From Escherichia coli (lineage in GTDB: Bacteria > Pseudomonadota > Gammaproteobacteria > Enterobacterales > Enterobacteriaceae): DNA of 64,000 nt. The position numbers and the translations under genes are program-made. Of the stretch, positions 159 to 41,210 are shown in pieces. Below the pieces are notes generated by a model that was not told where the DNA came from, searched no databases, and saw nothing but the letters and a program-made list of their open reading frames with translations. The DNA lies in assembly GCF_024223415.1 (NCBI RefSeq), contig NZ_CP100500.1. One strand, 5' to 3'. Numbering within the stretch: the stretch's first letter is position 1; each line of letters starts with the position of its first letter.

Positions 159-220
159 AATAAACAACACAGCGTCTCATTTGTTGCAGTTAAGTGACAT
201 ATTTAACAGGAGAGTCGGGA

Positions 221-4591: not shown

Positions 4592-4667
4592 CCAAAGTAA
4601 ACCAGGCACATATCCTCCATGCTCCCGGGACAACAGAGCGCAGTTCGGGCACTACAGCCTTACTGGT

Positions 4668-4958: not shown

Positions 4959-5839
4959 GGATACCCCCTGATTACCGCCTGCCCTTATTCCCCGGGAGAC
5001 TGAGAACAGGCTGAGATATAAGTATATTTATATAATATTATATTTCGGATTATTCGCAGAATACTGAAAAAACCGGTCGGGTCAACCGCAGGAAAACAGA
5101 AAGAGCCTGTAATAACGCATAGAAACGATATTTAAAACCAGAACAACCATCAAAAACAGAACATAAAGTCACAAAAACCGTCAAAAACGACCAGGTACTG
5201 CATTTTTAACACCTTTTTTAAATTTTGGTATCTTTACAAAAAACACCACCTGAAAATCATTTATTTAATTAAATAAAGTAAATTGCTTAGCCTGATAAAT
5301 ATTGTTCTGCAACACTCCGGTTCAGGCAGAATGTATTTTCATGGCTTACCCATTCAGGCGTAAATGCGATATTCCGCACATGACAGAGACCACACAAAGA
5401 AAAACAGGCGCAGACAGCCGGATACAGGATAAATTAACACTTCACAATCCGGCATTATTACGCTACAACATTCACGGGCAACTGCCCTTGTAACGAAAAC
5501 TTCCTTAATTTGGGTATTTGTGTGCCGTACGTCTGTGGTGTACGGCTTTTTTTCATTTTTTTATAATTTCTATAAATAAAGATATAATCAATACGTATAT
5601 ACCGTCGTATAAGATCCTTCTTCACCTTTCATTAAAAAGATCCGGAACAAAACAGACGATGAGATTGTGGTACTACCAGATTTACACCCTTACTCCGGAT
5701 AATTCACAAATCCTGAAATTACGACCTTCCTCCCGTTGCCGGACTGAAACAATATGCAGACACTCTGACGGACATGTCAGCAATGCACTCGCTCTCTGCT
5801 GTACAGGTATTACACCATACTTCACCAGGAGGTCTGTTC

Positions 5840-7483: not shown

Positions 7484-7658
7484 AATATTTGTTGTGCCGG
7501 ATCTTTTCCGGCATGATGATGTGTGTTACAGCCTCTGGCTTATAACACTCTGCAGTAGTGCTGGCTGACGTGACTGCCGGATATTCTGGTTTTCTTAAGT
7601 CACGGATATACTGACGACAGGGTTTCACATTCAATATTCAACTGACAGGTATGTTTAT

Positions 7659-8951: not shown

Positions 8952-8992
8952 TGTTTCACCGTTATATAACGGTATCATTCAGTTTTTAAAAA

Positions 8993-9016
8993 TGGCGACA
9001 GGTTAACCTGTCGCCA
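8993..9016. terminator. GC-rich hairpin (TGGCGACAGG-TTAA-CCTGTCGCCA) after the MFS gene
   Basis: Perfect 10-bp inverted repeat; T-run lies on the minus-strand side. Confidence 0.4.
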
Positions 9017-9585
9017 TCCGGTCAGATGCTCACCAGACCGCGCCCCCCATCAGTCTCCATATCCTCCCCCTTGCCCTGCCGGATGATAGCGCCACGCGAC
9101 ATCACCAGGTAGTGGTCCGCCGTAATGTTCCGGTGAAATCGTCCTGACACGTTTCCGGGCTCGTTATCAGCGGTTTTTGCGAATGATCGCCGCCCTGCGA
9201 TGGTTGATTTATTTTATTGCGCCCCGGCGTCTGCCTTGCCAGGTACCGGAGGCGGGCTCTGAAGTACTGAGTAGGGTGAGCGCGTCAGGCCACGAAGTAC
9301 TGACACGGGAGTTTGTGGCAGGCAGTGAAGTCCTGACCAGGGTAAGGGAGGGGCTGACGTGCATGCCCTGACTGTCAGCCAGGGCGCGTGGTGACTGACT
9401 TTCTCAATAACCCGCTGTCAGGCGCTCAACGCCCGACAGCAGGCCATGGCCCGGTGTGCAAAGACCTGACGGCAGGCCTTGTGTCACCCGGATAAGGTAA
9501 ATCCCTCAAGAGGCAGCAACTCAGCCAGTCGGTCCTCAGGCCACTCCGGCAGGCGCGTCAGTACGTCCGTCAGCCAGGCATGTTG

Positions 9586-11300
9586 CAAAATCGCATCGTG
9601 TTCGATCGCCGATTCGCATCGTACTCGATCGCTGATTCGCATTGTCCGATCATTGATTCGCATCCTGCAGTCACTCCTGGAATTAACTTTTCTGCATAGT
9701 CTCTACTGCTGAATTTTCTTCTCAGTAGAGGTCTTGATGGCTAAAAAGAAAATCTCCCGGAGTTCTATGGAAACCTGTTTAAAAATTCTCCAACTTAAGT
9801 TCGAGCAGCATCAGACAAACCGGACTATCGCACTTACACTGAACATCAGTCCCTCGACTGTTTCCGATGTATTGTCCCGCTTTAAGAACACGTCAATATC
9901 GTGGCCTTTGCCTGAATCGATGACAACTCAACGTCTTGAGGTGCTTATCTTTCCTGGCAAGCAAGCCCCGGAAATGACGCCGGCACTGCCTGACTGGCTC
10001 TACATTGATACCGAACTACGTCGTGTGGGAGTCACTCGTCAGCTCTTATGGATGGAATACAAACATCAGGCTGGTGAATATGCTCTGGGATACTCACAGT
10101 TCTGTCGTCGTTATCTGCACTGGAAAAAAAGCGTGCGTTACTCCATGCGGCAGGAACATCGTGCTGGTGAAAAACTCTTTATCGACTTCTGTGGTCCTAC
10201 AGTCCCTGTTGTTAATCCGGAAACCGGAGAAGAACGCAGAGTGGCCATCTTTGTAGCCGTGATGGGAGCATCTAACTATACCTATGTTGAAGCGTGCGAA
10301 GGTCAGGATCTGATGTCGTGGCTAAACGCCAACAGCCGATGTCTGACCTTCCTTGGTGGTGTACCAAAACTGCTGATCCCGGATAACCTTAAAAGTGCTG
10401 TCAAAAAAGTCGATCGCTACGAACCGGTCATCAATGAGAGTTACCAAGCATTCGCAGAGCACTACAATACAGTGATACTCCCAGCAAGACCAAGAAAACC
10501 AAAGGATAAAGCGAAAGCCGAAACGGCTGTACTTATCGTCGAACGATGGCTGCTTGCCCGCATTCGCAACGAGACCTTCTTTACACTCAGGAGCCTGAAC
10601 AGTCGTCTACGCGAGTTGTTGGTAGAGCTGAATAACCGTCCCATGAAAGGATACGGCAACCAGACGCGTGCAGAGCGTTTTGCCCTGCTGGATGCCCCTG
10701 CATTATCAGCCCTGCCAGTATCAGAGTATGAGTTCGCTGAATACAAAACGGTGAAAGTTGCACCTGATTACCATGTTGAATACGCCCACCACTGGTACTC
10801 AGTACCTCATGAACTGATCGGACAACGGTTATCCCTGAAAGCCACTCAGACAGTGATCCAACTCTGGCATCAGGGGCAATGCGTGGCACAACATCCGCGC
10901 AGCCTCCATGAGTACAAGCACACGACCAACCCTCTACACATGCCTGCAGCACATCAGGCACACAGCAGATGGACACCGGAAAGTCTTCAGGAAGCAGCCA
11001 GAAAGATAGATCCTTATACAGCAATGACAGTGGATAGCATGCTGAACAGTAAACGTCATCCTGAACAGGCTTACCGGACAGTCCTGGGGCTGCTGAGCCT
11101 GAAAAAACACTATGGTCGTGAGCGTCTGGAAAAAGCCTGTCATGTTGCCCGGGAGTGCAGAACGTCGGAAAGAAGGTTCATCGAAAACCTTCTGCGTAAT
11201 AACAGGGAAAACCTTTCCCTCCGGAAAAAGAGAGGCAGACGGAGGGAAACGTATCAAAAATCCAGTTAATACGCGTGATGACTGCCTGCATCACGTTTTC
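9586..11300 (+). mobile_element. IS21-family element remnant (istA only; boundaries approximate)
   Basis: Tandem ~21-bp repeats at 9586-9670 upstream of istA; element truncated before istB. Confidence 0.45.
9734..11269 (+). CDS. istA: IS21-family transposase IstA (cognate istB absent)
   Basis: N-terminal HTH plus catalytic core typical of IstA; no IstB-like ORF follows. Confidence 0.8.
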   Translation: MMAKKKISRSSMETCLKILQLKFEQHQTNRTIALTLNISPSTVSDVLSRFKNTSISWPLPESMTTQRLEVLIFPGKQAPEMTPALPDWLYIDTELRRVGVTRQLLWMEYKHQAGEYALGYSQFCRRYLHWKKSVRYSMRQEHRAGEKLFIDFCGPTVPVVNPETGEERRVAIFVAVMGASNYTYVEACEGQDLMSWLNANSRCLTFLGGVPKLLIPDNLKSAVKKVDRYEPVINESYQAFAEHYNTVILPARPRKPKDKAKAETAVLIVERWLLARIRNETFFTLRSLNSRLRELLVELNNRPMKGYGNQTRAERFALLDAPALSALPVSEYEFAEYKTVKVAPDYHVEYAHHWYSVPHELIGQRLSLKATQTVIQLWHQGQCVAQHPRSLHEYKHTTNPLHMPAAHQAHSRWTPESLQEAARKIDPYTAMTVDSMLNSKRHPEQAYRTVLGLLSLKKHYGRERLEKACHVARECRTSERRFIENLLRNNRENLSLRKKRGRRRETYQKSS

Positions 11301-14748: not shown

Positions 14749-15167
14749 AGACGTTACTTAAGGAAGAAGATGAGCAACAGGCTACACGTACGATAAAAGA
14801 CATTTGGGTCATGAATACACGATCTGGATGGACGACATAAAGGTGATGATCTGCTCAAACCAACCAGCGTTTATGATCGATGCGACAGACAGAAGGAATG
14901 AACTACTACAATAAATAAAATCTGTCGCTGTGTGGCAAGGAAGATTTTCTTCAGGAGTGCTGGCTTATTGGGATTTTTAACACAATTTAGAGTGAGTTCA
15001 ATCAGCCACAAATCTGGATTCCTATGTCCGGATTTTTACCACAATCCCCTTATTGATTTTTATTAATCATTCACAATCTGTGATCTAGCTCGATTGCGAT
15101 TTGTATTTGACTTAATATAATCACCATGATTGTATTAAATCAAATTATAACAACAGGCGTAAAAACC

Positions 15168-16121
15168 ATGAACATTAAAAAATCAATAGAACGAGTACCC
15201 GGCGGTATGATGGTTGTACCACTGGTGATTGGCGCCATTATCAATACCTTTTCACCACAAGTGCTGGAGATCGGCGGGTTCACCACCGCGTTGTTCAAAA
15301 ACGGCGCTGCTCCTCTGATTGGTGCCTTCCTGCTCTGTATGGGAGCAGGGATCAGCGTGAAAGCCGCACCTCGGGCGTTGTTTCAGGGGGGGGCAATAAC
15401 CCTGACCAAACTGCTTGTCGCCATTGCGATTGGCCTAGGTGTTGAGCATCTGTTCGGTCAGGAAGGTATCTTCGGATTGAGCGGCGTGGCAATCATTGCG
15501 GCAATGAGTAACTCAAACGGCGGACTTTACGCGGCGCTAGTGGGAGAGTTTGGCAACGAACGCGATGTCGGCGCTATTTCAATTCTATCTCTGAATGATG
15601 GACCGTTCTTTACAATGATCGCGCTGGGAGCTGCTGGTATGGCGAACATACCAATCATAGCGCTGGTCGCAGTGCTGATTCCGCTGGTGATAGGGATGCT
15701 CCTCGGTAACCTTGATCCCAACATGCGTGACTTCCTGACCAAAGGTGGACCACTATTGATCCCGTTCTTCGCGTTTGCGCTGGGTGCGGGGATCAACCTT
15801 GAAATGCTTCTGCAGGGTGGGCTGGCTGGGATTCTGCTTGGCGTACTGACCACCTTTATCGGCGGTTTCTTTAACATTCGCGCCGACCGTCTGGCTGGGG
15901 GAACCGGTATTGCCGGCGCGGCGGCTTCCAGCACAGCCGGAAATGCGGTAGCGACGCCGCTGGCGATTGCTCAGGCAGACCCTTCGCTGGCTGAAGTGGT
16001 TACCTCTGCCGCACCGCTGATTGCCGCATCGGTGATCACAACCGCAATTCTGACGCCAGTCCTAACCTCTCGGGTCGCCAAAAATCGGGCGCGTCAGATC
16101 TCTGAGGAGAAAAAAGTATGA
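15168..16121 (+). CDS. KdgT-family permease (2-keto-3-deoxygluconate transporter-like)
   Basis: MNIKKSIERVPGGMMVVPL matches the KdgT N-terminus; polytopic membrane protein. Confidence 0.75.
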   Translation: MNIKKSIERVPGGMMVVPLVIGAIINTFSPQVLEIGGFTTALFKNGAAPLIGAFLLCMGAGISVKAAPRALFQGGAITLTKLLVAIAIGLGVEHLFGQEGIFGLSGVAIIAAMSNSNGGLYAALVGEFGNERDVGAISILSLNDGPFFTMIALGAAGMANIPIIALVAVLIPLVIGMLLGNLDPNMRDFLTKGGPLLIPFFAFALGAGINLEMLLQGGLAGILLGVLTTFIGGFFNIRADRLAGGTGIAGAAASSTAGNAVATPLAIAQADPSLAEVVTSAAPLIAASVITTAILTPVLTSRVAKNRARQISEEKKV

Positions 16122-17389
16122 AGATGATCGTTATCGCCGACGACTTTACGGGTTCTAACGATACTGGCGTGCAGTTGGCGAAGAAAGGAGCTCGCACGGA
16201 AGTTTTGCTAACGCCGGAGCAAAAGCCTTCGCGTCGCACGGATGTACTGGTGCTCAACACTGAAAGTCGTGCGGTGCCGGCCGCACAGGCAGCGAAAGCG
16301 GTAACGCATGCTCTGGCTCCCTGGTGCAAAGGAGAGATGCTCCCGCTGGTATACAAGAAAATCGACTCCACATTTCGCGGCAACGTCGGCGCGGAAGTGA
16401 CGGCAGCGATGCGAGCCGCTAAACGGACTCTGGCAGTGATCGCTGCGGCGATCCCAGCTGCAGGACGCACAACCCGTAACGGATTATGCCTGGTCAACGG
16501 TACGCCTCTACTGGAAACCGAGTTTGCCAGCGATCCGAAAACGCCGGTTTTCTCCTCGCGCATTGCGGAACTGATCGCGCTACAAAGCGATATCCCGGTA
16601 CATGACGTGTCGCTTGATGACGTGCGACGCGGACAGCTCAGCGCCCTTCTTAAAGCTTTTGCAGCCCAGGGGGAATGCATGGTGGTAGTCGATGCGGTGG
16701 AAGATCACGACCTGTCTCTGATTACCCAGGCTATTTGTGAACAGGCTACATTTCCTCTACTGGTCGGTGCGGCAGGACTGGCGAATGCGCTACCGGTCAG
16801 AATGTTCATGCAGGAGAAGAAGGCTCTGCCAGTGCTAGTAGTTGCAGGATCGATGAGCGAAGCCACCCGGCGGCAGGTTGAAAAAGCGCTCACCCAGGCA
16901 CACGCCAACGTGGTGGACATTGATGTCTCACGACTGATTTCCTCGAAGGCCGAACAGGAAATAGCCTCTGTGGTGGAACAGGCCAGCGTGTTGCTCAGTC
17001 ACCAGAAACACACGATTCTTCGCACCAGCCGTAGTGCGGATGACCGACTGATGATCGATGCTCTGTGTACTGAAGCAGGCGTAGGCCGCCAACAGCTTGG
17101 CGAGATGCTCAGCCAATGTCTAGGGATCATTACACTGCGCATTATCGAACAGGCGCGTATTGGCGGCCTGTTCCTGACCGGAGGAGATATTGCCACTGCT
17201 GTTGCCAGTGCGCTTGGTGCTGAAGGCTATCGCATCCAGAACGAGGTCGCCCCATGCATTCCCTGCGGGATGTTTGTGAACAGCGAAATCGACGATCTTC
17301 CGGTGATCACGAAAGCTGGCGGATTCGGTTCAGACAGCACCCTTTGTGATGCACTTTATTTTATTGAGGAGATGTACAGTGGTAACTAA
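16118..17389 (+). CDS. Four-carbon acid sugar kinase, DUF1537 family (OtnK/DtnK-like)
   Basis: MKMIVIADDFTGSNDTG N-terminus typical of the family; overlaps the KdgT stop. Confidence 0.75.
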   Translation: MKMIVIADDFTGSNDTGVQLAKKGARTEVLLTPEQKPSRRTDVLVLNTESRAVPAAQAAKAVTHALAPWCKGEMLPLVYKKIDSTFRGNVGAEVTAAMRAAKRTLAVIAAAIPAAGRTTRNGLCLVNGTPLLETEFASDPKTPVFSSRIAELIALQSDIPVHDVSLDDVRRGQLSALLKAFAAQGECMVVVDAVEDHDLSLITQAICEQATFPLLVGAAGLANALPVRMFMQEKKALPVLVVAGSMSEATRRQVEKALTQAHANVVDIDVSRLISSKAEQEIASVVEQASVLLSHQKHTILRTSRSADDRLMIDALCTEAGVGRQQLGEMLSQCLGIITLRIIEQARIGGLFLTGGDIATAVASALGAEGYRIQNEVAPCIPCGMFVNSEIDDLPVITKAGGFGSDSTLCDALYFIEEMYSGN

Positions 17390-18362
17390 AACAATAGCGA
17401 TTACGATGGGCGATCCGGCAGGTATCGGTCCAGAAATAATTGTCAAGGCACTTTGTGAAAATGAACTTAGCGGCGCACCGCTGGTAGTGGTGGGATGCCT
17501 ACAGACCCTACAACGTTTGCAAACCAAAGGACTGGCAGAAGGAGTGACTTTTCGCGCAATTGACAATGTCACGCAGGCGCGATTTTCACAGGGCGTGATT
17601 CACGTAATCGATGAGCCGCTGGCACAGCCCCAAGCGCTGGAGCCAGGTAAAGTGCAGGCCGAGGCGGGAGATCTGGCCTACCGTTGCGTAAAACGTGCGA
17701 CGGAGTTGGCACTGAAAGGTGATGTACACGCCATCGCCACTGCGCCGCTGAATAAAGAAGCACTACATCAGGCGGGACATTATTATCCGGGACATACCGA
17801 ACTGCTGGCGACGTTGACCGGAAGCCGTGACTATGCGATGGTGCTTTACACCGACAAGCTGAAGGTGATTCACGTTTCGACCCATATTGCGTTACGCAAG
17901 TTTCTCGACACTCTCAACAGGCAACGCGTGGAGACTGTTATAGGCATCGCGGATCACTTCCTTAAGCGTATTGGCTTAGCCCAACCGCGCATCGCCGTAG
18001 CCGGGATCAATCCCCATGCAGGCGAAAACGGTCTGTTTGGCGATGAAGAAATTCGCATTGTATCGCCAGCCATTGAAAACATGAGGGCGAAAGGAACAGA
18101 CGTTTTCGGACCATGTCCACCGGATACCGTGTTTTTGCAGGCATACGAGGGTCATTATGACATGGTGGTGGCGATGTACCACGATCAGGGACATATTCCG
18201 CTCAAACTGCTTGGATTCTATGATGGCGTGAATATCACCGCCGGTCTGCCGTTTATTCGTACCTCTGCTGATCACGGGACTGCGTTTGATATTGCCTGGA
18301 CGGGCAAAGCAAAATCTGAGAGCATGGTCATATCGATTAAACTGGCAATGCAACTGGCATAA
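17379..18362 (+). CDS. PdxA-family NAD-dependent dehydrogenase (PdxA2-like 4-phospho-hydroxy-acid dehydrogenase)
   Basis: IAITMGDPAGIGPE plus MYHDQGH/ADHGTAFD motifs; GTG start overlapping the kinase stop. Confidence 0.75.
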   Translation: MVTKTIAITMGDPAGIGPEIIVKALCENELSGAPLVVVGCLQTLQRLQTKGLAEGVTFRAIDNVTQARFSQGVIHVIDEPLAQPQALEPGKVQAEAGDLAYRCVKRATELALKGDVHAIATAPLNKEALHQAGHYYPGHTELLATLTGSRDYAMVLYTDKLKVIHVSTHIALRKFLDTLNRQRVETVIGIADHFLKRIGLAQPRIAVAGINPHAGENGLFGDEEIRIVSPAIENMRAKGTDVFGPCPPDTVFLQAYEGHYDMVVAMYHDQGHIPLKLLGFYDGVNITAGLPFIRTSADHGTAFDIAWTGKAKSESMVISIKLAMQLA

Positions 18363-18371
18363 TTTCCTGTT

Positions 18372-19142
18372 ATGAAAGGACAACACCGTCTGGATAAAAT
18401 AGTGGCGTATTTGAAAAATCATACGCTGGCGACCGTGGAACAACTTGTAGATGTGGTAGAAGCATCGCCCGCGACGATCCGACGTGATCTGATCAAACTG
18501 AATAAACAGGGTGTGATCAGCCGCAGCCACGGAGGTGTTGCCCTGCGGCGTTTTGAACCCGCGCAACCCACAACCAATGAAAAGCAATTACGATCGCCTG
18601 CGGAAAAGCGGGCGATCGCGCGTTTTGCAGCCTCAATAGTACAGGCCGGCGACGCAGTGGTTTTGGACGCCGGCACCACCATGCTGGAGTTGGCTAAATG
18701 CCTGACTCATTTGCCACTCAGGGTGATCACGGTCGATCTGCATATCGCCCTGTTTTTGTCCGAATTTCCCCAGATTGAAGTCACCATTGTGGGTGGTCGT
18801 ATTGATGAAAGCAGTCAGTCCTGTATCGGCGACTTTGGTCGCAAAATGTTACGTAGCGTCTACCCTGATATCGCATTCATGAGCTGTAACACCTGGAGTA
18901 TGGAAAAAGGTGTCACAACTCCGACGGAGGACAAAGCAGGACTCAAGCAGGAGATTATCGCTAACGCCCAACGTAAGGTTCTACTGGCCGACAGCAGCAA
19001 ATATGGCGCGCATTCGCTGTTCAACGTAACGCCGCTGAGCAGTTTTACCGATGTTGTGACCGATGTGCATCTGCCACGCCCTGTCCAGGCAGAGCTGGAA
19101 GCCCACTCCATTGCCCTTACGCTAGTCCAGCCTGGATTTTAA
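18372..19142 (+). CDS. DeoR-family transcriptional regulator
   Basis: N-terminal HTH ([22 protein letters not shown]) with DeoR-type C-terminal domain. Confidence 0.8.
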
Positions 19143-19429: not shown

Positions 19430-20464
19430 TCAGACGGTGGTCATATCAATAACGATTCTGCCGTTGATTTTTCCTGCGCGCATGCGGCCGAATACAGAGT
19501 TGATATTTTCCAGTGGCTCCGTGGTGACCTCTGCATGAACCTTGTGCTGACCGGTAAAGAAGAGAGCTTCCTGCAAATCCTTACGGGTCCCTACAATAGA
19601 ACCCCTCACAGTTATACCATCAAGCACCATATCGAATATCGACAAATCAAATTTCCCCGGCGGCAGACCGTTCAGTACCATCGTTCCGCCACGACGCATC
19701 ATACCTGTGGCCTGAGAAAATGCGGCTGGTGACACTGCCGTGACCAGTACACCATGTGCACCACCAGTTTCTGCATGAATGCGCTGTACCGGATTTTCAC
19801 GCACGGCGTTCACCACAACAGAGGCTCCAAGTCTGCAGGCCAGCTCCAGTTTACTGTCATCCACATCAACAGCCGCAACATTCATCCCCATCGCGGCGGC
19901 ATACTGAACGGCCAGATGTCCCAGTCCTCCGACACCGGAAATCACCACCCATTCCCCCGGGCGGGCTTCCGTCATTTTCAGTCCTTTGTAAACAGTCACG
20001 CCGGCGCAAAGCACGGGGGCTATATGGTGAAAATCAACATTATCCGGAAGAAGTCCGACATAATTCGCATCCGCAAGACAGTATTCCGCAAACGTGCCAT
20101 TCACCGAATAACCAGCATTTTGTTGGGAATGACACAGGGTTTCCCAGCCCCCCAGGCAATGCTCACAGTAGCCGCATGCAGAATACAGCCAGGGAACCCC
20201 TACCCGATCGCCTTCCCTGATATGTTTTACGCCGGCACCCACGGCCACCACGTGACCTACCCCTTCATGTCCCGGAATAAACGGCGGACGTGGTTTGACT
20301 GGCCAGTCACCATCTGCAGCATGAAGATCGGTATGGCATACCCCCGTGGCTGCTATTCTGACCAGAATTTTTCCGGGTTCAATGGCCGGCACGGTAACTT
20401 CATCAATAACCAGCGGTTTTCCAAATTCTGTGACAATAGCGGCTTTCATGGTTTTGAGTTGCAT
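19430..20464 (-). CDS. Zinc-dependent alcohol dehydrogenase (AdhP-like)
   Basis: GVCHTDLH and GHEGVG zinc-binding motifs, GLGGLG NAD-binding motif. Confidence 0.85.
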
Positions 20465-20494
20465 TTTTGATTCCTCTGTTAGCGAAAGACAAAA

Positions 20495-22015
20495 TCAGAA
20501 CAGACCAGCCGGTGATGTGTCATAACTGACCAGAATATTTTTAACCTGCTGATAGTGGCTGAGAGCCAGCTTATGTGTTTCCCTGCCAATACCAGAATTT
20601 TTATACCCTCCGAATGCGGCATGTGCCGGGTAATAATGGTAACAGTTTGTCCATATACGCCCGGCCTGGATCCCTTTTCCCATTCTCCATGCCCGGTTTA
20701 TATCTGTCGTCCACACACCCGCGCCAAGTCCGTATTCCGTATCGTTGGCGATACTGAGCGCCTCTTCTTCTGTCCTGAACGTGGTTATGCCAATGACAGG
20801 TCCGAAGATTTCCTCCCTGAAACATCGCATCTGATTATGGCCTTTGATCAGGGTCGGCTGAATGTAGAAGCCATTCTGTAAATGTCCCTCGTGGATGACA
20901 GGTGCACCACCGGTGAGTATTTCTCCGCCCTCATCCCTTGCTATGCGGATCCAGGAAAGGATCCTGTCATACTGTTCCCGGGAAGCCTGTGCACCTATCA
21001 TTGTGTCTGTATCAAACGGATCTCCACGGCGGATATTTTCGATTTTATGCAGAACCCGCTCCACAAAAGCCTGAAAGATCGTTTCCTGAACCAGGATACG
21101 TGAGGGACAGGTACAGACCTCCCCCTGATTAAAGAAGCCAAGTACAGCACCTTCAACCGCCTTTTCAAGGTAGCTGTCATCTCCGTTCATCACATCGTCA
21201 AAGAAAATATTGGGGGATTTACCGCCCAGTTCGACTGTACTGGGGATAATATTTTCAGCTGCGCAGGAGAGAATATGCCGCCCGACGGGCGTGGAGCCTG
21301 TGAATGCAATTTTATCGATACGACGGCTGCGGGCCAGAGCTTCACCAGCTTCCTGCCCGAAACCATGAACAACGTTAAGCACACCCGGCGGTAAAAGATC
21401 ACCGATTAATTCCAGCAGTACGCAAATACCCAGAGGGGTCTGTTCTGCGGGCTTCAGTACCACACAGTTTCCTGCCGCAAGTGCCGGTGCCAGTTTCCAG
21501 GCCGCCATCAGCAAAGGAAAATTCCATGGAATAATCTGACCGACCACTCCCACAGGTTCATAGATGTGCCATGCCATCATATCCCTGCCCACCTCTGCTG
21601 CACTGCCTTCCTGCGCCCGGAGACAGCCCGCAAAATAACGGAAGTGGTCAACTGCCAGTGGAATATCGGCCGCGAGTGTTTCGCGTACCGGCTTGCCGTT
21701 ATCCCAGGTTTCTGTCAGTGCCAGGATTTCTGTGTTCGCTTCAATACGATCGGCAATGGCAAGCAGTATATTCGCCCGCTCCGTGACCGGTGTTGCCCCC
21801 CATCGGGCTCTGGCCTCATGTGCCGCAGTGAGCGCGCTTTCAATATCCATCTCACCCGAACGTGGGAATTCAGCAATATTTTCTCCGGTAACAGGAGTGG
21901 TGCTGGTGAACCATCGCCCGCCGACAGGATCAACAAACTGACCGTTGATAAAGTTACCGTAGCGTTTTTTGAATGACACTTTTGAGCCGGGTAATCCCGG
22001 ATGTATGTATTTCAT
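20495..22015 (-). CDS. NAD-dependent aldehyde dehydrogenase (AldB-like)
   Basis: Collinear by eye with E. coli AldB; ELGGKSP and catalytic Cys context GEVCTCPSR. Confidence 0.9.
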   Translation of the reverse strand: MKYIHPGLPGSKVSFKKRYGNFINGQFVDPVGGRWFTSTTPVTGENIAEFPRSGEMDIESALTAAHEARARWGATPVTERANILLAIADRIEANTEILALTETWDNGKPVRETLAADIPLAVDHFRYFAGCLRAQEGSAAEVGRDMMAWHIYEPVGVVGQIIPWNFPLLMAAWKLAPALAAGNCVVLKPAEQTPLGICVLLELIGDLLPPGVLNVVHGFGQEAGEALARSRRIDKIAFTGSTPVGRHILSCAAENIIPSTVELGGKSPNIFFDDVMNGDDSYLEKAVEGAVLGFFNQGEVCTCPSRILVQETIFQAFVERVLHKIENIRRGDPFDTDTMIGAQASREQYDRILSWIRIARDEGGEILTGGAPVIHEGHLQNGFYIQPTLIKGHNQMRCFREEIFGPVIGITTFRTEEEALSIANDTEYGLGAGVWTTDINRAWRMGKGIQAGRIWTNCYHYYPAHAAFGGYKNSGIGRETHKLALSHYQQVKNILVSYDTSPAGLF

Positions 22016-22081
22016 GACATTCTCCCTGAGCGAAATTCAGTGTACGTTCATGCAGGAACAAAACTGTTGCAGATAACCTTA

Positions 22082-22098
22082 AGCAACACCCATGCCAC
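22082..22098 (-). promoter_or_regulatory. Candidate sigma-54 (-24/-12) promoter for the aldehyde/alcohol dehydrogenase operon
   Basis: Minus strand reads TGGCAT-N5-TTGCT with GG…GC spacing as in the TGGCAC-N5-TTGCW consensus, about 70 bp upstream of the ALDH start. Confidence 0.5.
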
Positions 22099-22256
22099 CA
22101 AGTTGTTACACACAGTTAACAACAACAAAAACAGCCTGTTAGCCCAAAAAACAGACAACCGAAAAAGAATCACCACAGGAAAATGTGAAGCAAATAAAAC
22201 ATTTTCGATACACAAATGATACAATCATGCAACACAACTGTTGCAAGGATTGAATT

Positions 22257-24017
22257 ATGTTACGTAAGAGATCTGCAACTGAGTATCAGAAAGAAAAAGC
22301 CACGCTTCCGGTACTCCTGAGTGCATCATGGCAACGATGTACCGGCTATCATCTCGAAAGAGACAGTGCGCCCTCAGTATGTGTTGAGCATGACCAGTTA
22401 CGGGATCTCCGGTCGCACAACGGCTGGTCAGATATCCTTAAACAACAGTTCCCTGAATCAGGCTCTGATTTTTTCAGTAAATCACTGGTACTGGTTATTG
22501 CTGATGCATCAGGCGTGATCCTTGACACCTGCGGTAACAGGAAATTTCTGAATAAAGCCGAAGGTTTTTTCCTTTCCCCCGGTCATATCTGGACCGAACA
22601 ACACTACGGCACAAATGCCATAGGTACAGCGCTGGCTGTACAGCAGGCATGTGAAGTGAGGGGGAGTGAACACTGGCTCAACAGAAATTCAGGACTCTGT
22701 TGTTCGGCATACCCGCTATTTTCACCTGAAGGTTATCTTGCCGGTATCCTGGATTTATCGTCACCGGCAGATTTACCATTCCGTGATGCACCGGTGATTA
22801 TCAGGCGGTTTGTTCAGCAAACCGAATATCTCTGGACAACAAAACGACTCAATGCAGAGAGATATCTGTTGCATCTCCGCCGGGAAAACAACGCAGACAT
22901 CAGTGACAGTAGTGAATTTTTACTGGTCATTGAAGGTGATGTGATTGTTGGTGCCAACAGGCTCGCTGTGAATGAATTTGGCCTTCTTCCACCTTATGAT
23001 TCCGTCACTCTGGATACTCTCTTTACCGGGGGTAACAGACAGTCTGATTTTCTGGAATCGTGCAGCGGACAACGTTATCTGCAGCGACGCACCCGCCCCC
23101 ACAGAGCTGCCGTGAATCTGTCACCCCGCCTCCGTTTTCCATCGCGGCGTGAAGCGGACAACGAAAAAAAGGAAAAAGCACAGCAGTTAATCAACCACGG
23201 AATATCGGTCTGTATTACAGGAGAAACCGGAACGGGGAAAGAATATCTGGCGCGGGAGCTTCACCGTAACAGTTGCCGGAAAAACGGCAACTTTGTTGCA
23301 ATTAACTGTGCTGCCCTGCCGGAACACCTGACAGAATCAGAGCTTTTCGGATACGCTCCGGGAGCATTTACCGGCGCGAATTCCAGAGGTTATCCCGGGA
23401 AAATCAGGGAAGCCAGTGGCGGGATCCTGTATCTTGATGAAATCGGCGATATGCCGGCAACACTTCAGACACGGTTATTACGTGTACTGCAGGACAAAAA
23501 AGTGATTCCTCTGGGTTCAAACACGCCTGTGGACGTTGACTTCGTACTGATATCAGCCACGCACCGTGATCTGGATAAGATGTGTGCAGAAGGGACTTTT
23601 CGGGATGATCTGTTATACCGAATACGGGAATTTCACCTGCATCTTCAGCCACTTCGGGAAAGAAGCGACCTGGGTAAACTGATAGTTAAACTCTGGGAAG
23701 AATCTGAACAGGAGATGAAAAAAACCGTCATGCTGGGCAGTGAAATTATTGAAGATTTAAAACGACATTCATGGCCGGGGAATGTACGTCAGTTGCTGAA
23801 TGTGCTCAGAGTTCTGATGGCGCTGGCACGACCTGGAGGAAGAATCACTCCAGGTGATCTCAGCGTAGTGTCTGAAGATATTTGTCATATCCATAATACC
23901 GTAAAGATAGTGACCGAAAGAAAAATAGTGGATGAGGCCGGAGGAAACATCAGCAGAGCGGCAAAAATGCTGGGTATTTCCCGAAGCACATTATACAGAC
24001 GACTGAAAAGTCTGTAA
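22257..24017 (+). CDS. Sigma-54-dependent transcriptional activator (AcoR-like)
   Basis: AAA+ Walker A GETGTGKE, GAFTGA signature, C-terminal HTH; divergent from the ALDH operon. Confidence 0.85.
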   Translation: MLRKRSATEYQKEKATLPVLLSASWQRCTGYHLERDSAPSVCVEHDQLRDLRSHNGWSDILKQQFPESGSDFFSKSLVLVIADASGVILDTCGNRKFLNKAEGFFLSPGHIWTEQHYGTNAIGTALAVQQACEVRGSEHWLNRNSGLCCSAYPLFSPEGYLAGILDLSSPADLPFRDAPVIIRRFVQQTEYLWTTKRLNAERYLLHLRRENNADISDSSEFLLVIEGDVIVGANRLAVNEFGLLPPYDSVTLDTLFTGGNRQSDFLESCSGQRYLQRRTRPHRAAVNLSPRLRFPSRREADNEKKEKAQQLINHGISVCITGETGTGKEYLARELHRNSCRKNGNFVAINCAALPEHLTESELFGYAPGAFTGANSRGYPGKIREASGGILYLDEIGDMPATLQTRLLRVLQDKKVIPLGSNTPVDVDFVLISATHRDLDKMCAEGTFRDDLLYRIREFHLHLQPLRERSDLGKLIVKLWEESEQEMKKTVMLGSEIIEDLKRHSWPGNVRQLLNVLRVLMALARPGGRITPGDLSVVSEDICHIHNTVKIVTERKIVDEAGGNISRAAKMLGISRSTLYRRLKSL

Positions 24018-24337
24018 GAACAACGTGCTGCCGGATACGTTATTTGCGGGAAATTCCTGTTCTGTAAAATATATCTCAGGTTGTTAAAACCCTGTCATTC
24101 TTCCATGTGAACAGTATGAGAAACATCACACGGGTATATTCACGGCCGGCACAACCACAGACATAAATGATATCCTGCGCATCATTTCCTGATGCTCTGA
24201 TACTGAGTTAACCACTTATTTACATCTGACGATAAATTGTTTATTCATTCTTCAGGGTAAATAAAGCCATAAGGAGTGTGATATTCACGATACGCTGAAA
24301 ATCGGTGAACTGAAAAATGGCAGTTACAGGGGGAAAT

Positions 24338-25822
24338 ATGAGTGATTTAATTAATTTTATTAATGGCATAATATGGAGCCCGGCACTGGTCTGGCTTTGT
24401 CTTGGAACAGGCCTCTGGTTTTCTGTCAGGGGACGCTTCCTGCAGCTCCGGCATATTAAAGAAATGCGCCGTCTGATATTCCGGAGTAAACAGAATGATG
24501 CGGGCGTTTCCTCTTTTCAGGCACTCACGATGACACTGGCCGGACGGGTCGGAACCGGTAATATTGCCGGTGTTGCCACGGCTATCACCTTTGGTGGTCC
24601 CGGTGCATTATTCTGGATGTGGGTGGTGGCATTTCTCGGCGCAAGCTCAGCCTTTGTCGAATCCACACTGGGGCAAATTTATAAGGAAAAAATTAACGGA
24701 GAATACCGGGGCGGACCCGCTTTTTACATAGAAAAAGGGCTTGGGTTACGATGGTACGCATGGCTGTTTGCTGTGGTGACGGTGCTTTCCTGTGGGCTGT
24801 TATTACCCGGTGTCCAGGCGAATTCGATAGGAAGCAGCCTGAACCTTGCATTCGGGATTAGCCCCAATGTGACGGCAGCATTTATCGCCCTCCTTCTTGG
24901 ATTCATCATCTTTGGTGGTGTAAAACGGATTGCTGTATTTACCAGTACTGTCGTGCCTTTCATGGCTCTCGGCTATATCATTGTCGCGTGTGTCATTGTT
25001 GCACTTCATATTGAAAAACTTCCCGGCGTGCTCCTCCTTGTCTGGCGCTCTGCTTTTGGACTGGATGCAGGTTTTGGTGCCATTGTCGGGCTTGCCATTT
25101 CATGGGGGGTCAAACGTGGTGTCTATTCCAATGAAGCCGCTCAGGGAACCGGACCTCACGCCTCTTCCGCTGCGGCAGTGACACATCCGGTTAAACAGGG
25201 ACTGGTGCAGGCCTTTTCTGTATATATCGACACGCTTTTTGTCTGTTCAGCTACGGGATTTATGCTTCTTGTTACCGGTCTGTATAATGTTCAGGGCCCC
25301 GGTGATGTTGCCTTATATACCGGTATCGCCGGTGTGGCAGCCGGGCCCGGCTATGTGCAGACAGCCATGGAAAGTATGATGCCGGGGTTTGGTAATTATT
25401 TTGTCGCAATCGCACTGTTCTTTTTCGCATTCACCACGATTGTTGCTTACTATTATATCGCAGAAACTAACATTGCCTGGATTTGCCGTAAAACAGCACG
25501 CCCCTGGCTTATGATTGTACTGAAGATTATGCTGATGGTTTCTGCGGTATACGGTACGGTCAAAACCGCAGATATGGCATGGGGACTGGGTGATATAGGG
25601 GTTGGTATGATGGCATGGCTTAATATCATCGCTATATTGCTTATGGGAGGGACTGCGTTTAATTGCCTCAGGGACTACGAAAAACAGATGTCACAGAATG
25701 CTGACCCGGTATTTGATCCCGAACGCCTCAGTCTGCAAAATGCTGATTACTGGACAGAACACCGTGATGAAGTTAAAAAATTGAGTGAGCCCGGGCCCAC
25801 ATTCCGGACAACGTCGTCGTAA
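24338..25822 (+). CDS. Alanine/glycine:cation symporter (AGCS family)
   Basis: Collinear with YaaJ-type carriers from MSDLINFINGIIW. Confidence 0.85.
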   Translation: MSDLINFINGIIWSPALVWLCLGTGLWFSVRGRFLQLRHIKEMRRLIFRSKQNDAGVSSFQALTMTLAGRVGTGNIAGVATAITFGGPGALFWMWVVAFLGASSAFVESTLGQIYKEKINGEYRGGPAFYIEKGLGLRWYAWLFAVVTVLSCGLLLPGVQANSIGSSLNLAFGISPNVTAAFIALLLGFIIFGGVKRIAVFTSTVVPFMALGYIIVACVIVALHIEKLPGVLLLVWRSAFGLDAGFGAIVGLAISWGVKRGVYSNEAAQGTGPHASSAAAVTHPVKQGLVQAFSVYIDTLFVCSATGFMLLVTGLYNVQGPGDVALYTGIAGVAAGPGYVQTAMESMMPGFGNYFVAIALFFFAFTTIVAYYYIAETNIAWICRKTARPWLMIVLKIMLMVSAVYGTVKTADMAWGLGDIGVGMMAWLNIIAILLMGGTAFNCLRDYEKQMSQNADPVFDPERLSLQNADYWTEHRDEVKKLSEPGPTFRTTSS

Positions 25823-26084
25823 ATCAGAAACATTTTCCCGTCAGATGCCCGACGTATTCTGACGGTTAAGGGGCTGCAGGAGACGATATGCTCATTCCTG
25901 CAGCCCTGATTATTTCCCCTCCCTCCACAGGAAAAACATGCTCCCCTGTATTTTATACCAGATATTTTTATCTTTATCGTCCGGCCACCTTATGGTATAA
26001 AATCCGCAAACGGCAAGGCTGAACAGTACCTCGTTCCGGGTGGTTTGAGACTTTTCTGCCTTAGCCGTTTTCTGATCTTCAACC

Positions 26085-26303
26085 GTGGTATCAAAAATGA
26101 AAACAAAACAGGACTGGTTATTTCAGTTACGGCGATGCTCCAGTATTGAAACCCTGGAAAAAGTTATTGAGAAAAATCATTACTGCCTGACCCCATCAGA
26201 AATGGAAACATTCAATTCAGCGGCAGATCACCGGCTTGCAGAACTTAAAATGAATAAGCTTTATGACAAAATTCCGCCGTCAGTCTGGAAATATGTTTAT
26301 TAA
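26085..26303 (+). CDS. Hha/YmoA-family nucleoid-associated modulator
   Basis: 72 aa, near-collinear with Hha (…LRRC…[11 protein letters not shown]…[20 protein letters not shown]…). Confidence 0.8.
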
Positions 26304-27603: not shown

Positions 27604-29955
27604 TCAGAATAACCCCCCTTCACCATCAGCCACAATCCTGTATCCCATCGCCTTATAACCCCGCTGGCGTTTATCCCACATTCTGAGCAGCACAGGATAC
27701 GCTTTATCCACAAAATCAATGATCCTGACATCGCTTTTACCGGTATACTGTCTGTGCAGACGCCCTGCATACTGCTGTAACGTCCCTTTCCATGACACCG
27801 GCATCGCCAGAATCAGCGTATCCAGCGGTGGGTGGTCAAATCCCTCACCAATAAGTTTACCGGTTGACAACAGAATGCGGGGAGAATCCTGAGGAAGCGC
27901 ATTTAACTCAGAAATCAGCATTGTACGCTTTTTTTTCGATAACCGGCCATGAAGCACAAAGGGTGACAGGTTCAGTGAATGCATTACTGATGCTATATCA
28001 TCCAGATGCTCTTTTCGTTCAGTCAGTACCAGAACTTTACGTCCCTGCGCGAATGCCTTCATGGCTTCTTCAGCTATCGCCACAGTCCTGTCATGATCAA
28101 GCGCAATTTCTCTGAAAATATCCTGGATCCCCGCATCCGATGGTAAATGTCCGGATGTAAAACGGAAACGGAGCTGCACTTCCAGATTATGCGGACTTTC
28201 CTTCGGGCTGGCCGCTGTGTGACGAAGGGCACCACAGTACATAAAAATGATGGGATGCAGACCATCCCGTCGGACAGGCGTTGCCGTCAGTCCCAAAAGA
28301 TATCTGGCATTCGTTTCCTTCAGAACAGCAGAAAATGAAAACGCTCCAGCATGATGGCACTCATCAACTATGACTTGCCCGTAATTCCTGACCACAGGTG
28401 CAACTTTGCCATGCCTGAACAGAGACTGCACAACAGCAATATCAATATTGCCAGAGGGGTTATGTTTGCCCCCTCCGATAATACCAATACCGTCACTGGT
28501 CTGCAGAAATACCCCAAGCCGCTCCTGCCATTGCTTTAATAACTCAGTCCGGTGTACCAGTACAAGTGTATTAACTCTCCGTCGTGCAATCACAGCCGCG
28601 GCGGTAACCGTCTTACCAAAAGCCGTTGGCGCACAAAGTACACCAGAATCATAACGGAGCAATACCGAAACAGCCTCTTCCTGATCCGCTCTGAGGTTTC
28701 CCGTGAACACAGCATGACATTCTGTACCTGCAAATCGTTCATCGATGATTTCTGCAGCAATATTGTTGTCACTGAGGAAGGATAATGCGCTGTCCAGACA
28801 TCCACGGGGTAACGCAATGTGTTGCGGATAATTTTCCGCACAACCTGTAACCCGGGGTTTATTCCAGACAGACATTCTCATGGCCTGAGCCTTATAAAAC
28901 ACAGGATTAGGAAACGCAGCCAGTCGAATAAGCCGGTTGGCCAGCGGCTGAGGTAATTGCGCTTTTTCGAAATAGATCTGGTTTGCCAGCGTGATTCTCA
29001 GCGGCTCAGCAACAGAAACCGTCAGTTTGTTTTCTGATGATGTTTTCCACGGCGTGCTCAGGTCTTCGTCGGTAAAGTTCACATCCAGTGGATGAATACT
29101 TCCTGTAGCCCGTAATATTGTCGGTTCTATATCCTGCACATTCATCGGGATCACCGATGCCAGGAATGCCCACTGATCAGGATAAGGCTGAAAATTCATA
29201 TCAACAAAAACACTGCCTCCCGATTCACGCGGTCTTTTTTGCAGAGGTAACGCGATGAGATTGCCGAATCCCCCTTTTGGCATGGTATCCTGATTAGGAA
29301 ATAATCGGTCATAAGAACTCAACCGCAGTTGCCGGGAACGGCTACACGTATGGCTGATAACGGCTGTCCCCAGTCGGCGTGCATCACGGGCCGAAACCCG
29401 GGAAGCAAAAAATATCCAGACATGCGCCCCCTGACGTGAGCGGGATATTTCCAGCGCTGCGGGTATCCCCAGCTCATCACAGGATCGCATGAATGCGGAT
29501 GCATCCTTCTGCCATTCAGCATCATCAAAATCAACAGCCAGAAAATAACAGGAATCGTCTTCCAGCAGCGGATATACCCCGACTGTATGGTAGCCTGCGA
29601 GATGACGGTAAATGACAGGATCGGATACAGGTAGCAACTGACGGTGTGCGCAGTCACCGCATTTTATCCCGGGCTTACCGCAGATTCCCGGCTTCCATTC
29701 GTTAGCACAGGCCGGCGAATACCCTGATTTACCACTGACCTGACTTTCCCAGCGAAGGGCCCATACATCATCACGCCCACGAAACAACCGACGAAATAAT
29801 GAAACCTTCTGTTCAGCAGATAATGCGGAAACATGATGTACAGAACGCTGCGGTTTACGTCGCCATTCAATCCCGTGAGCTTCAAGTAATGAGGCCAGAC
29901 GGGCATTTTCTGCCCTCAGTGCAGCTAATTCGTCGTTATCAGATTGACACACCAT
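27604..29955 (-). CDS. Putative primase-polymerase / SF2 (DEAD/DEAH-type) helicase fusion protein
   Basis: C-terminal helicase motifs I AFGKT, II DECHH, III TAT, VI QYAGRLHR; N-terminal zinc ribbon CGKPGIKCGDCAHRQ and acidic DFDD motif. Confidence 0.75.
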   Translation of the reverse strand: MVCQSDNDELAALRAENARLASLLEAHGIEWRRKPQRSVHHVSALSAEQKVSLFRRLFRGRDDVWALRWESQVSGKSGYSPACANEWKPGICGKPGIKCGDCAHRQLLPVSDPVIYRHLAGYHTVGVYPLLEDDSCYFLAVDFDDAEWQKDASAFMRSCDELGIPAALEISRSRQGAHVWIFFASRVSARDARRLGTAVISHTCSRSRQLRLSSYDRLFPNQDTMPKGGFGNLIALPLQKRPRESGGSVFVDMNFQPYPDQWAFLASVIPMNVQDIEPTILRATGSIHPLDVNFTDEDLSTPWKTSSENKLTVSVAEPLRITLANQIYFEKAQLPQPLANRLIRLAAFPNPVFYKAQAMRMSVWNKPRVTGCAENYPQHIALPRGCLDSALSFLSDNNIAAEIIDERFAGTECHAVFTGNLRADQEEAVSVLLRYDSGVLCAPTAFGKTVTAAAVIARRRVNTLVLVHRTELLKQWQERLGVFLQTSDGIGIIGGGKHNPSGNIDIAVVQSLFRHGKVAPVVRNYGQVIVDECHHAGAFSFSAVLKETNARYLLGLTATPVRRDGLHPIIFMYCGALRHTAASPKESPHNLEVQLRFRFTSGHLPSDAGIQDIFREIALDHDRTVAIAEEAMKAFAQGRKVLVLTERKEHLDDIASVMHSLNLSPFVLHGRLSKKKRTMLISELNALPQDSPRILLSTGKLIGEGFDHPPLDTLILAMPVSWKGTLQQYAGRLHRQYTGKSDVRIIDFVDKAYPVLLRMWDKRQRGYKAMGYRIVADGEGGLF

Positions 29956-31628: not shown

Positions 31629-33062
31629 TCAGAGGTCAAAGTTAGGTGCGACATACCACGTTTTATCGTCCATAAGCTGTACAACTCTGTTTTGCTCATA
31701 CAGTAAATCCAGTAACCAGTTGAGTTTATCTTTTTTACGGAAACGATTCGGGCCACGCTGTAAAATGTCATTTTTTTTCATACAGGGAACCCCCTTCTCA
31801 ATGCAATAGCTTTTTATCCAGTTAAAAAGTTCAAGCTCCTCCGGAATGAGTCGCATAGTTACGGTCTGGGCAGAGTTTTCAAACGTTAACGGACTGGATA
31901 ACCGAATATACTCATTACCGTACCATATTGCTAATTCTCTCGCCATTTCAGCTGTGTAGGGGGAAATGTCACCTTCCTCACCGCTGACATGGTGAATAAG
32001 CCCAGCCAGTCTTGCCATATACTCTGCATTTTTAGCAGCATATTCTCTGAAGTCTCTTAAAGGCCCCAGAACCGCCATCTTCGATTCCACATCGTTGTAA
32101 TAGTCCGTCCAGATTCTGGCTGCCTGAGGAGAAAAGTGAAGGCAACGTCGCTCTCCCCTCATAGCCAGGCTTTCATCAATAAGTTCATTGATCCTCTTGT
32201 CAAATAACTCCTGATACTGTGATGAATAATTATCTCCGGTTATTATCCTTGTCCCCTGCGTTGATGTTGGTTGACACATCAAAAACCGTGCATGATGTCC
32301 TGATGTCTTCACCAGTTCTTTTTTTCGTGTACAAAAACCTTTGTGGTAAACATCAGGCTGAATCATCACCGATATCGTCAGTCTTGGGTCCTTCAAAAAA
32401 ATCCCGGGAGATGATTTCCTGTCGATGAAAAGGGAACTACCATCCCATAAAGAGTTAAGTATTCCCAGTTTGCTCATTGCCCGGCTGTCAAAAATCACCC
32501 CGCCCTCACTGGATACAAGAGCAAAAGAGCGATTGCTGTCGGAATAATATTTAAACATTCCCTCTGTCGTCGTATCATTAAAAATTGTCCGATTTATCTG
32601 CGGTGGAACAGGACAACTATTCAGATGCATTCTGAGCTCTGATTCTGTTGCTTCATACTCTTTACCGGCACGAATCTCTTTATGAAGTTTTGACTCCAGT
32701 GCCTTTTGTTTTTGCTCCCATATTTCCTTTTCTGCACTGTAATTCTCAACCAGTTTCGCATATTCTTCCGCAAGAGTTTCATCCCTGAGATAAAATGCTT
32801 TCATAAAAACTTTATCCACGGTCGTTTTCCTTTCGCCGGAATCAGCCAGAATCATAGCGTAAAGATTAGAGGGGCCACGTAAATTACCAGGTCTGCACAC
32901 ATCAATCTGATTCTGACAGGCAACTGACACCGCTGTTAATGCTGCTGTTGCAACCAGAGCCCCGGGCGCCTGTGTATTTTGCTGAGTTTCAATTATTGCA
33001 TTTCTCACCAGAGATGTTAATGCATTTATCGGAAAAGGGGCTTCCTGTTCAAGTAAGGACAT
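31629..33062 (-). CDS. DUF3987-type protein (YfjI-like)
   Basis: Position and composition match CP4-57 YfjI; start set at internal ATG 33062 (GAGG RBS); hairpin 31576-31606 downstream. Confidence 0.7.
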   Translation of the reverse strand: MSLLEQEAPFPINALTSLVRNAIIETQQNTQAPGALVATAALTAVSVACQNQIDVCRPGNLRGPSNLYAMILADSGERKTTVDKVFMKAFYLRDETLAEEYAKLVENYSAEKEIWEQKQKALESKLHKEIRAGKEYEATESELRMHLNSCPVPPQINRTIFNDTTTEGMFKYYSDSNRSFALVSSEGGVIFDSRAMSKLGILNSLWDGSSLFIDRKSSPGIFLKDPRLTISVMIQPDVYHKGFCTRKKELVKTSGHHARFLMCQPTSTQGTRIITGDNYSSQYQELFDKRINELIDESLAMRGERRCLHFSPQAARIWTDYYNDVESKMAVLGPLRDFREYAAKNAEYMARLAGLIHHVSGEEGDISPYTAEMARELAIWYGNEYIRLSSPLTFENSAQTVTMRLIPEELELFNWIKSYCIEKGVPCMKKNDILQRGPNRFRKKDKLNWLLDLLYEQNRVVQLMDDKTWYVAPNFDL

Positions 33063-33321
33063 AAATACCTCAATTTTAGTTAATAAATCAGTAAAGTAGC
33101 AGATATTCCCGCTATAATAGCCAAAATAGCTGCTATGCATAGCCGATATGTTCTGAAAAATACAGTAATCGGGCATACCTGATGTTGAACAAAACGATAA
33201 GGTTGATTCAATTCAGCCTGTATTATTAGCTACGTAACATCATTCACATTGCTCACTCCTGACATCTTCTGATGATTATTTCAACGACGCCTTATTCATG
33301 GTCGTTTTCCTTTTTCATGAA

Positions 33322-38543: not shown

Positions 38544-38692
38544 CATTTTATCTGCCTGTACGGCAGTGAACATGGTGGGCGGGTGGAGTATGTTACCAGT
38601 GAATTTCTAAGCTGCCTGTACGGCAGTGAACGTTTGCTGCAACCGCTAGCCAAGACGGTAGGTTTTTCTAAGCTGCCTGTACGGCAGTGAAC
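38544..38692 (-). CRISPR. Orphan type I-F CRISPR mini-array (3 repeats, 2 spacers, no cas genes in window)
   Basis: Two exact copies of TTTCTAAGCTGCCTGTACGGCAGTGAAC (38604-38631, 38665-38692) plus a degenerate copy ending at 38571; spacers of 32-33 bp. Confidence 0.8.
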
Positions 38693-41180: not shown

Positions 41181-41210
41181 AGGCACCTCCCCCAATTTTT
41201 ATGCCTGCAT

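Follow-up and report, generated by a model that had tools for sequence, protein, structure and literature searches.

An aldehyde dehydrogenase (ALDH) and an alcohol dehydrogenase (ADH) encoded opposite a divergent AcoR/EatR-type activator form a module of a known kind, with studied family members in Phytobacter, Pseudomonas and Ralstonia. In P. aeruginosa, the gene for the sigma-54 activator EatR lies divergently from an ExaC-type ALDH gene at the head of the eat-eutBC operon, and the protein senses acetaldehyde, not ethanolamine (PMC5821096). EatR and AcoR have a common two-domain sensor, and a response to acetaldehyde has been proposed for both (PMC8694187). In R. solanacearum, rpoN1 is needed for growth on ethanol and an acoR-exaC pair is present (PMC4676750). 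For Phytobacter diazotrophicus, Lin et al. 2025 (PMC12648084) report less aldB mRNA after knockout of acoR; in an electrophoretic mobility shift assay (EMSA), the purified helix-turn-helix (HTH) part of the protein, AcoR-HTH, shifted a probe with ACGACACAGTTCGCGAA and not a probe without it. A module of this kind lies in the 64-kb stretch of Escherichia coli contig NZ_CP100500.1 analysed here (hereafter the window), where the genes for an ALDH (20495-22015) and an ADH (19430-20464), both on the minus strand, stand opposite an activator gene (22257-24017, plus strand). An earlier note on this DNA had proposed a sigma-54 ALDH/ADH operon controlled by a divergent AcoR-like activator through an upstream site, a view supported by comparison of 11 intergenic regions and by published work on relatives. 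Judging from sequence, we assign a probability of roughly 0.75 to an architecture made up of a sigma-54 promoter, an enhancer of repeated heptads and a divergent activator.

Predicted sigma-54 promoter and upstream heptad block

The 241-bp region between the ALDH and activator genes contains a putative -24/-12 promoter, TGGCATGGGTGTTGCT, on the minus strand (22082-22097), with its GG at 22096/22095 and its GC at 22084/22083. It matches the sigma-54 consensus at 10 of 11 positions and is the sole match to TGGCAY-N5-TTGCW without mismatch across the 64 kb. The match by itself is not significant, since about 0.35 such matches are expected by chance per window and 31 of 100 shuffled sequences hold at least one; it gains significance because it is correctly oriented within the short intergenic region, adjoins an activator gene and is conserved in relatives. 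The TGGCAT-N5-TTGCT element of the earlier note is thereby confirmed on the minus strand, the end position 22098 given there including one extra flanking base.

Ten related loci were compared, among them those of Kosakonia, Phytobacter, Yokenella, Salmonella, E. lignolyticus, Serratia, Cronobacter and Klebsiella. The gene for the 506-aa ALDH and that for the activator are divergent neighbours in all of them, separated by 250-281 bp, and an AdhP gene follows the ALDH gene in four (Kosakonia, Salmonella, Cronobacter and the metagenomic locus L015). All remaining neighbours vary, and the amino-acid symporter gene that adjoins the activator gene in the window is absent from this position in all ten, so the conserved unit pairs ALDH(-AdhP) with the divergent activator. 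Identity between the ALDH and those of eight related loci is 72-81%, and the ADH is 77-83% identical to its counterparts in Kosakonia, Salmonella and Cronobacter. A -24/-12 promoter, typically TGGCATAAGAACTGCT, is aimed at the ALDH gene in all 11 intergenic regions, that of the window included. Locus L013 is from a record labelled Pseudomonas lundensis (GCA_033447255.1); its activator is 83-90% identical to Serratia proteins and the locus is syntenic with that of Serratia marcescens (L011), so the assembly may be mislabelled or contaminated, or the locus recently transferred. A homologue search seeded with this activator returned only Enterobacterales proteins and no Pseudomonas EatR.

Transcription of the ALDH gene is predicted from the position of the -12 GC to begin near 22071, which would give a leader of 56 nt (22016-22071, minus strand) with a ribosome-binding site, GGGAG, at 22022-22026. 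Predicted leaders in the 11 intergenic regions measure 53-68 nt. The leader of the window folds with no more stability than shuffled sequences (z = 0.96) and matches no Rfam family. A scan for terminators gave nothing convincing at the end of the operon.

Upstream of the promoter, at 22184-22235 (about -113 to -164 from the predicted start site), lies a conserved block of heptads of the form GNWACAY, which we regard as the candidate upstream activating sequence. In the window it comprises a degenerate first element, U1 (TGTGAAGC, 22184-22191), followed by U2 (AAAACAT, 22196-22202), U3 (GATACAC, 22207-22213), U4 (GATACAA, 22218-22224) and U5 (GCAACAC, 22229-22235), with U2 to U5 spaced by exactly 11 bp, or about one helical turn. 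A further, inverted heptad, U6 (CTGTTGC, 22238-22244), is without counterpart in relatives. Two alignments, A1 with 9 intergenic regions and A4 with 11, both contain invariant columns inside the block and give the consensus TGTGTCGCAnATCGCAACACnCGnGACACnnTTATGCTACAnAATTGCAACAC, an array of about 50 bp whose distal end holds a single inverted copy. A pattern built from the relatives alone, GMWACA-N5-GCAACA, has a single match in the whole window (0.05 expected), at 22218-22234, 22 nt before the activator ATG, and likewise a single match, at constant position, in each orthologous locus of about 10 kb.

The enhancer had originally been sought in a palindrome at 22228-22245, TGCAACACAACTGTTGCA, with 7-bp arms (TGCAACA and TGTTGCA) and a 4-bp spacer (CAAC). 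It occurs once in the window against 0.00 exact matches expected, and it sits 131-163 bp upstream of the -24 element. Comparison with the relatives resolves the palindrome into U5 and U6: the left arm, TGCAACA, falls on invariant columns, whereas the right arm is lineage-specific and unconserved in both A1 and A4. The palindrome is accordingly replaced as enhancer by the multi-heptad block, of which only its left arm forms a conserved part. Its described overlap with the start of the activator gene holds for the 5' region of that gene but not for the coding start, as the palindrome ends 11 nt before the ATG (22257).

In related intergenic regions the block terminates 21-23 nt before the activator start codon, and because the heptad array lies so close to this ATG the activator probably regulates its own gene. 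The same arrangement invites a reading in which the palindrome and the proximal heptads (22218-22245) serve mainly as promoter and operator of the activator gene, with sigma-70 transcription and negative autoregulation, while the true enhancer lies elsewhere or in the distal elements only. The distance from block to activator ATG is fixed in every relative, whereas the distance from block to sigma-54 promoter varies by about 35 bp; TGATACAAT (22217-22225) looks like an extended -10 element; and the Phytobacter site tested by EMSA corresponds to the distal arm instead of the proximal heptads. Yet enhancers that act by DNA looping tolerate a variable distance to a sigma-54 promoter, no sigma-70 promoter was recognised by the scan at the proximal heptads, and no -35 element is conserved. 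Overlap of enhancer and autoregulatory site is moreover usual for divergent activator-target pairs, so that the roles of operator and enhancer are compatible, and we consider it unlikely that the first accounts for the conservation in place of the second.

The proposed enhancer function of the heptad block finds its closest experimental counterpart in Phytobacter. The 17-mer ACGACACAGTTCGCGAA occurs without mismatch between the ALDH and activator genes of P. diazotrophicus plasmid pTMTA97303 (locus L016, 4370-4386), over the inverted heptad at the distal end of the conserved block. Relative to the start site predicted by the -24/-12 promoter TGGCATAAGAGCTGCT of that locus (L016, 4246-4261), it lies at about -135 to -151, a placement that would make the Phytobacter site an ordinary upstream activating sequence. 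The motif published for this system, ACNANACAGTTNGNGAN, shares only an ACAGTT core with the elements of the window and was not used as a model.

Several observations weigh against the proposed architecture. PMC12648084 puts the AcoR site at +24 of a transcriptome-derived start site, in conflict with the promoter-based placement above. In the window, the distal element, counterpart of the EMSA-tested site, is more degenerate than any other part of the block. No IHF consensus with at most one mismatch lies between the heptad block and the promoter, while 4 of 8 relatives carry one, in matching positions of the alignment; nor did the sigma-70 scan yield a convincing promoter for the activator gene itself. 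Outside the E. coli copies of the locus, the closest activators are only 43-51% identical, and the likeness to EatR (PA4021) is drawn from its published description.

In the mechanism we favour, the sensor domain of the activator would detect a short-chain aldehyde, most probably acetaldehyde, and the protein would bind the GNWACAY array at 22184-22235. Through ATP hydrolysis and its GAFTGA loop it would then open the sigma-54 closed complex at the TGGCAT-N5-TTGCT element. Transcription would run from about 22071 through the genes for the ExaC-like ALDH and AdhP, and in this strain would be expected to depend on rpoN. The two enzymes would convert ethanol via acetaldehyde to acetate, or would serve in aldehyde detoxification.

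Imperfect repeat over the predicted transcription start

The half-site CTGTTGCAG that had been noted at 22064-22072 is present, but TGTTGCA alone is at chance level (16 matches against 15.9 expected in the window), and it forms, downstream of the promoter and where transcription is predicted to start, the end of a duplicated element of 26-29 nt. This element, TACGTTCATGCAGGAACAAAACTGTTGCA (22043-22071), is an imperfect copy, close to the start site, of the enhancer-proximal element. The two form direct repeats (D1/D2, spacing 174/177) of 29 nt (22043-22071) and 26 nt (22220-22245). Their alignment, with 23 matches and a single 3-nt indel, scores 16, compared with 7.6 +/- 1.6 in shuffled sequences, none of which reached this value in 2000 trials. 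The copy spans +1 to about +29 of the predicted transcript. A riboregulatory role for it was rejected, as the leader folds at shuffle level and has no match in Rfam.

The copy might be read as a second binding region for the activator, together with the heptad GTGTTGC (22084-22090), the reverse complement of U5, at -18 to -12 inside the promoter. The activator would then bind over and on both sides of the sigma-54 promoter, activating when aldehyde is present and acting as a repressor, anti-activator or roadblock when it is absent; alternatively, the copy would be a natural downstream enhancer. If true, either would be rare for bacterial enhancer-binding proteins. The repeat exceeds chance and keeps the heptad-like sequences GGAACAA and CTGTTGC, and all four E. 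coli sequences with the locus have the start-site copy in identical form. These four are so alike (about 99.5% identical overall, with 2 single-nucleotide polymorphisms in the 241 bp, both outside any element) that they say nothing on selection. GTGTTGC necessarily contains the -12 element TTGC, and no equivalent of the copy was seen in the leaders of the relatives. The duplication may be a neutral scar. We therefore judge dual control through a second binding region unlikely, and binding on both sides of the promoter, in either of the forms above, slightly more so. The duplicated element is the sole unexplained detail of the module.

Encoded proteins, candidate effector and island setting

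The activator (586 aa) has the layout expected among sigma-54 enhancer-binding proteins, with an N-terminal sensor (residues 1 to about 300), an AAA+ domain starting at about residue 302 and a C-terminal Fis-type HTH. It carries Pfam domains Sigma54_activat (PF00158, 1.4e-60), AAA_lid_14 and HTH_8 (PF02954, 2.7e-11, residues 560-584), and its Walker A (GETGTGK at 322), GAFTGA (at 369) and YLDEIG motifs are intact. The AAA+ domain matches the AAA+ structures of FleQ, NtrC and ZraR at 1e-50 to 1e-62. Both hallmarks of NtrC-type enhancer-binding proteins are thus found, an AAA+ domain with a GAFTGA loop and a C-terminal Fis-type HTH. A MimR_N sensor (PF26965) was assigned through the 99%-identical protein cluster P0001, whose precomputed domains, rather than a Pfam scan of the activator itself, are the source; the domain is present in all relatives too, and with this type of N-terminal sensor the activator falls in the AcoR/MimR_N class (COG3284). 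Within the recognition-helix motif SRSTLYR(R/K), the residues SRSTLYR are invariant among relatives. In all nine aligned activators the sensor motif GTNAIGTALA and Cys149, part of an N..GL.C motif, are also invariant; that Cys149 might be the aldehyde-reactive residue is plausible, as pure speculation.

The gene calls of the earlier note (an AldB-like/AdhP-like operon, an AcoR-like activator and an amino-acid symporter) were borne out by NCBIfam and Pfam, with a refinement for the first enzyme. The 506-aa product of the first operon gene has ExaC (NF050026), an NAD+-dependent aldehyde (acetaldehyde) dehydrogenase family, as its best family by far, yet scores 871.3 bits, under the curated equivalog cut-off of 900, and we therefore prefer the label ExaC-like. 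Its full-length match to PDB 9koi, described as NAD+ dependent aldehyde dehydrogenase ExaC, scores 878 bits. The second gene encodes a 344-aa AdhP-type Zn-dependent alcohol dehydrogenase (NF006940, 371.5 bits against an equivalog cut-off of 344) with the Pfam domains ADH_N and ADH_zinc_N and with the Zn-ligand and GxGxxG motifs present.

The inducer, given as unknown by the earlier note, is not fully open: to judge by the homologous EatR/AcoR systems, it is likely to be acetaldehyde or another short aldehyde. On this analogy we give acetaldehyde itself about an even chance of being the effector. A different signal or pathway could instead be involved, such as acetoin or 2,3-butanediol, longer aldehydes or amino-aldehydes from amine catabolism, or amino-acid-derived aldehydes tied to the symporter. 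Relatives of the activator are often annotated as acetoin catabolism regulators, its sensor is only about 43% identical to that of the closest studied relative, the ALDH scores just below the ExaC cut-off, and an alanine/glycine:cation (AGCS) symporter gene adjoins the activator gene. Against this, no acoABC, eutBC or amine oxidase genes are found at the locus, and the invariant partner of the activator is an ExaC-type ALDH, joined by AdhP in four related loci. The symporter is neither conserved at this position nor intact in strain NCTC9699. We consider such an alternative signal doubtful.

The symporter gene (24317-25822, plus strand; TIGR00835, 461 bits against a cut-off of 273) more likely starts at 24338, for a product of 494 aa. 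That it follows the activator gene and encodes an amino-acid symporter, of the AGCS family, stood up in the comparison, but it lies outside the conserved unit, and the pattern scan of the window found no -24/-12 match upstream of it. Its membership of the regulon was rejected, since it is unconserved next to the activator, lacks a sigma-54 promoter and is cut by IS1 in strain NCTC9699. A long hairpin at 25870-25906 may terminate the symporter transcript, and a small Hha-family gene (68 aa, 26097-26303, plus strand) stands directly beyond it.

Searches of 5426 complete E. coli genomes with megablast, and with sensitive blastn for the intergenic region and the sensor domain, found the module in a single genome, that of NCTC9699, in which the flanks differ and IS1 truncates the symporter gene while adhP, the ALDH gene and the activator gene are intact. 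In the window the module is part of a mosaic island that contains genes for a Mu-like transposase, for YhgA-like and YagK/YfjJ-type proteins and from prophage remnants; the island also holds a KdgT / four-carbon-acid kinase / PdxA / DeoR cluster, the Hha-like gene, a TOTE primase-helicase gene and an integrase gene next to clpA. The module, horizontally acquired and rare in E. coli, is a divergent representative of a family found widely in Enterobacterales. Its rarity and its mosaic surroundings, with transposases and prophage-remnant genes, could mean that the promoter and heptads are non-functional remnants within unexpressed island cargo. The three open reading frames are nevertheless intact with their catalytic and ATPase motifs, the promoter and heptads fit the conserved pattern, and rpoN is present in E. 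coli, which makes decay a very improbable explanation.

Several other parts of the window were recorded alongside. Immediately upstream of the module, and convergent with adhP, a cluster at 15126-19142 encodes a KdgT permease, a four-carbon acid sugar kinase (SBD_N/NBD_C), a PdxA-family dehydrogenase and a DeoR regulator; it resembles threonate/erythronate-type catabolism, and the same neighbours occur in loci L004 and L005, not in NCTC9699. A 783-aa protein encoded at 27604-29955 (minus strand) combines a TOTE conflict-system archaeo-eukaryotic primase domain with a ResIII/DEAD helicase, and after it come a DUF3987 gene (31629-33176) and a stretch of low GC content (38-41%, 30-38 kb); this segment looks like a defence or satellite-like part of the same island. 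Three CRISPR-DR4 repeats (type I-F-like, 28 nt), two of which exceed the Rfam gathering threshold, lie at 38544-38692, between the island integrase gene (37123-38325) and clpA (38904-41195). ARAGORN found no tRNA anywhere in the window. An accessory block at 1-9742, which only some 11 records in the E. coli collection hold at no less than 99% identity, encodes a gamma-aminobutyrate (GABA)-type aminotransferase, an aromatic amino-acid permease, an LldD-like FMN dehydrogenase, an L-lactate permease and a major facilitator superfamily transporter, and is followed by a Mu-like transposase gene (9734-11269).

Comparison with described systems

The module holds nothing conceptually new. With it the E. 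coli pan-genome gains, as island cargo, a strain-specific sigma-54 activator of a "thirteenth type" and a regulon, and the module could raise the capacity for acetaldehyde and ethanol oxidation in the rare gut E. coli that carry it. It is also a candidate part for an aldehyde-responsive biosensor. For the widespread ALDH-AcoR module of Enterobacterales, the comparison offers a clearer cis-regulatory model, a -24/-12 promoter with a multi-heptad enhancer, and reinterprets the position of the sole published binding site.

The acetoin regulators named AcoR (Cupriavidus necator, B. subtilis and P. aeruginosa PA4147) belong to the same COG3284/AcoR-type class, with a GAF/PAS-like sensor and sigma-54 dependence, and acetaldehyde has been proposed as their signal (PMC8694187). 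They differ in their targets, the acoABC acetoin dehydrogenase genes, which are absent at the window locus, and their published sites, in the form quoted in PMC12648084, are unlike the GNWACAY array. In Ralstonia solanacearum, the acoR-like gene Rsc3129 adjoins the exaC gene Rsc3128, which has a predicted RpoN promoter, and growth on ethanol depends on rpoN1 (PMC4676750). This system is betaproteobacterial, its regulator-target link is only predicted, and the likeness is drawn from its published description.

EatR (PA4021, opposite PA4022-eat-eutBC; Lundgren et al. 2016, as cited in PMC5821096) resembles the activator of the window in its divergent orientation, in an ExaC-type first gene and in a -24/-12 promoter, and its effector, acetaldehyde, is there described as the substrate of the first enzyme of its operon. 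Unlike the EatR operon, that of the window is without an ethanolamine transporter or ethanolamine ammonia-lyase gene, and AdhP follows the ALDH; neither EutB nor EutC was found within 1-30 kb of the window, so that the eat/eutBC part of an EatR regulon is lacking there. The EatR sensor also appears to be about 40 aa longer, its second PAS domain ending at residue 344 (PMC8694187) compared with the AAA+ start at about 302 in the activator described here.

The AcoR-aldB system of Phytobacter differs from the module of the window in an activator sensor region that is only about 43% identical and in the absence of adhP from the locus examined; the window in turn has a degenerate distal element, an added inverted heptad that completes the palindrome, and the duplicated start-site element. 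The passages of PMC12648084 consulted make no mention of a -24/-12 promoter for Phytobacter aldB. Both systems share a divergent pair of ExaC-like ALDH and MimR_N-type sigma-54 activator, the position of the predicted promoter and the heptad block.

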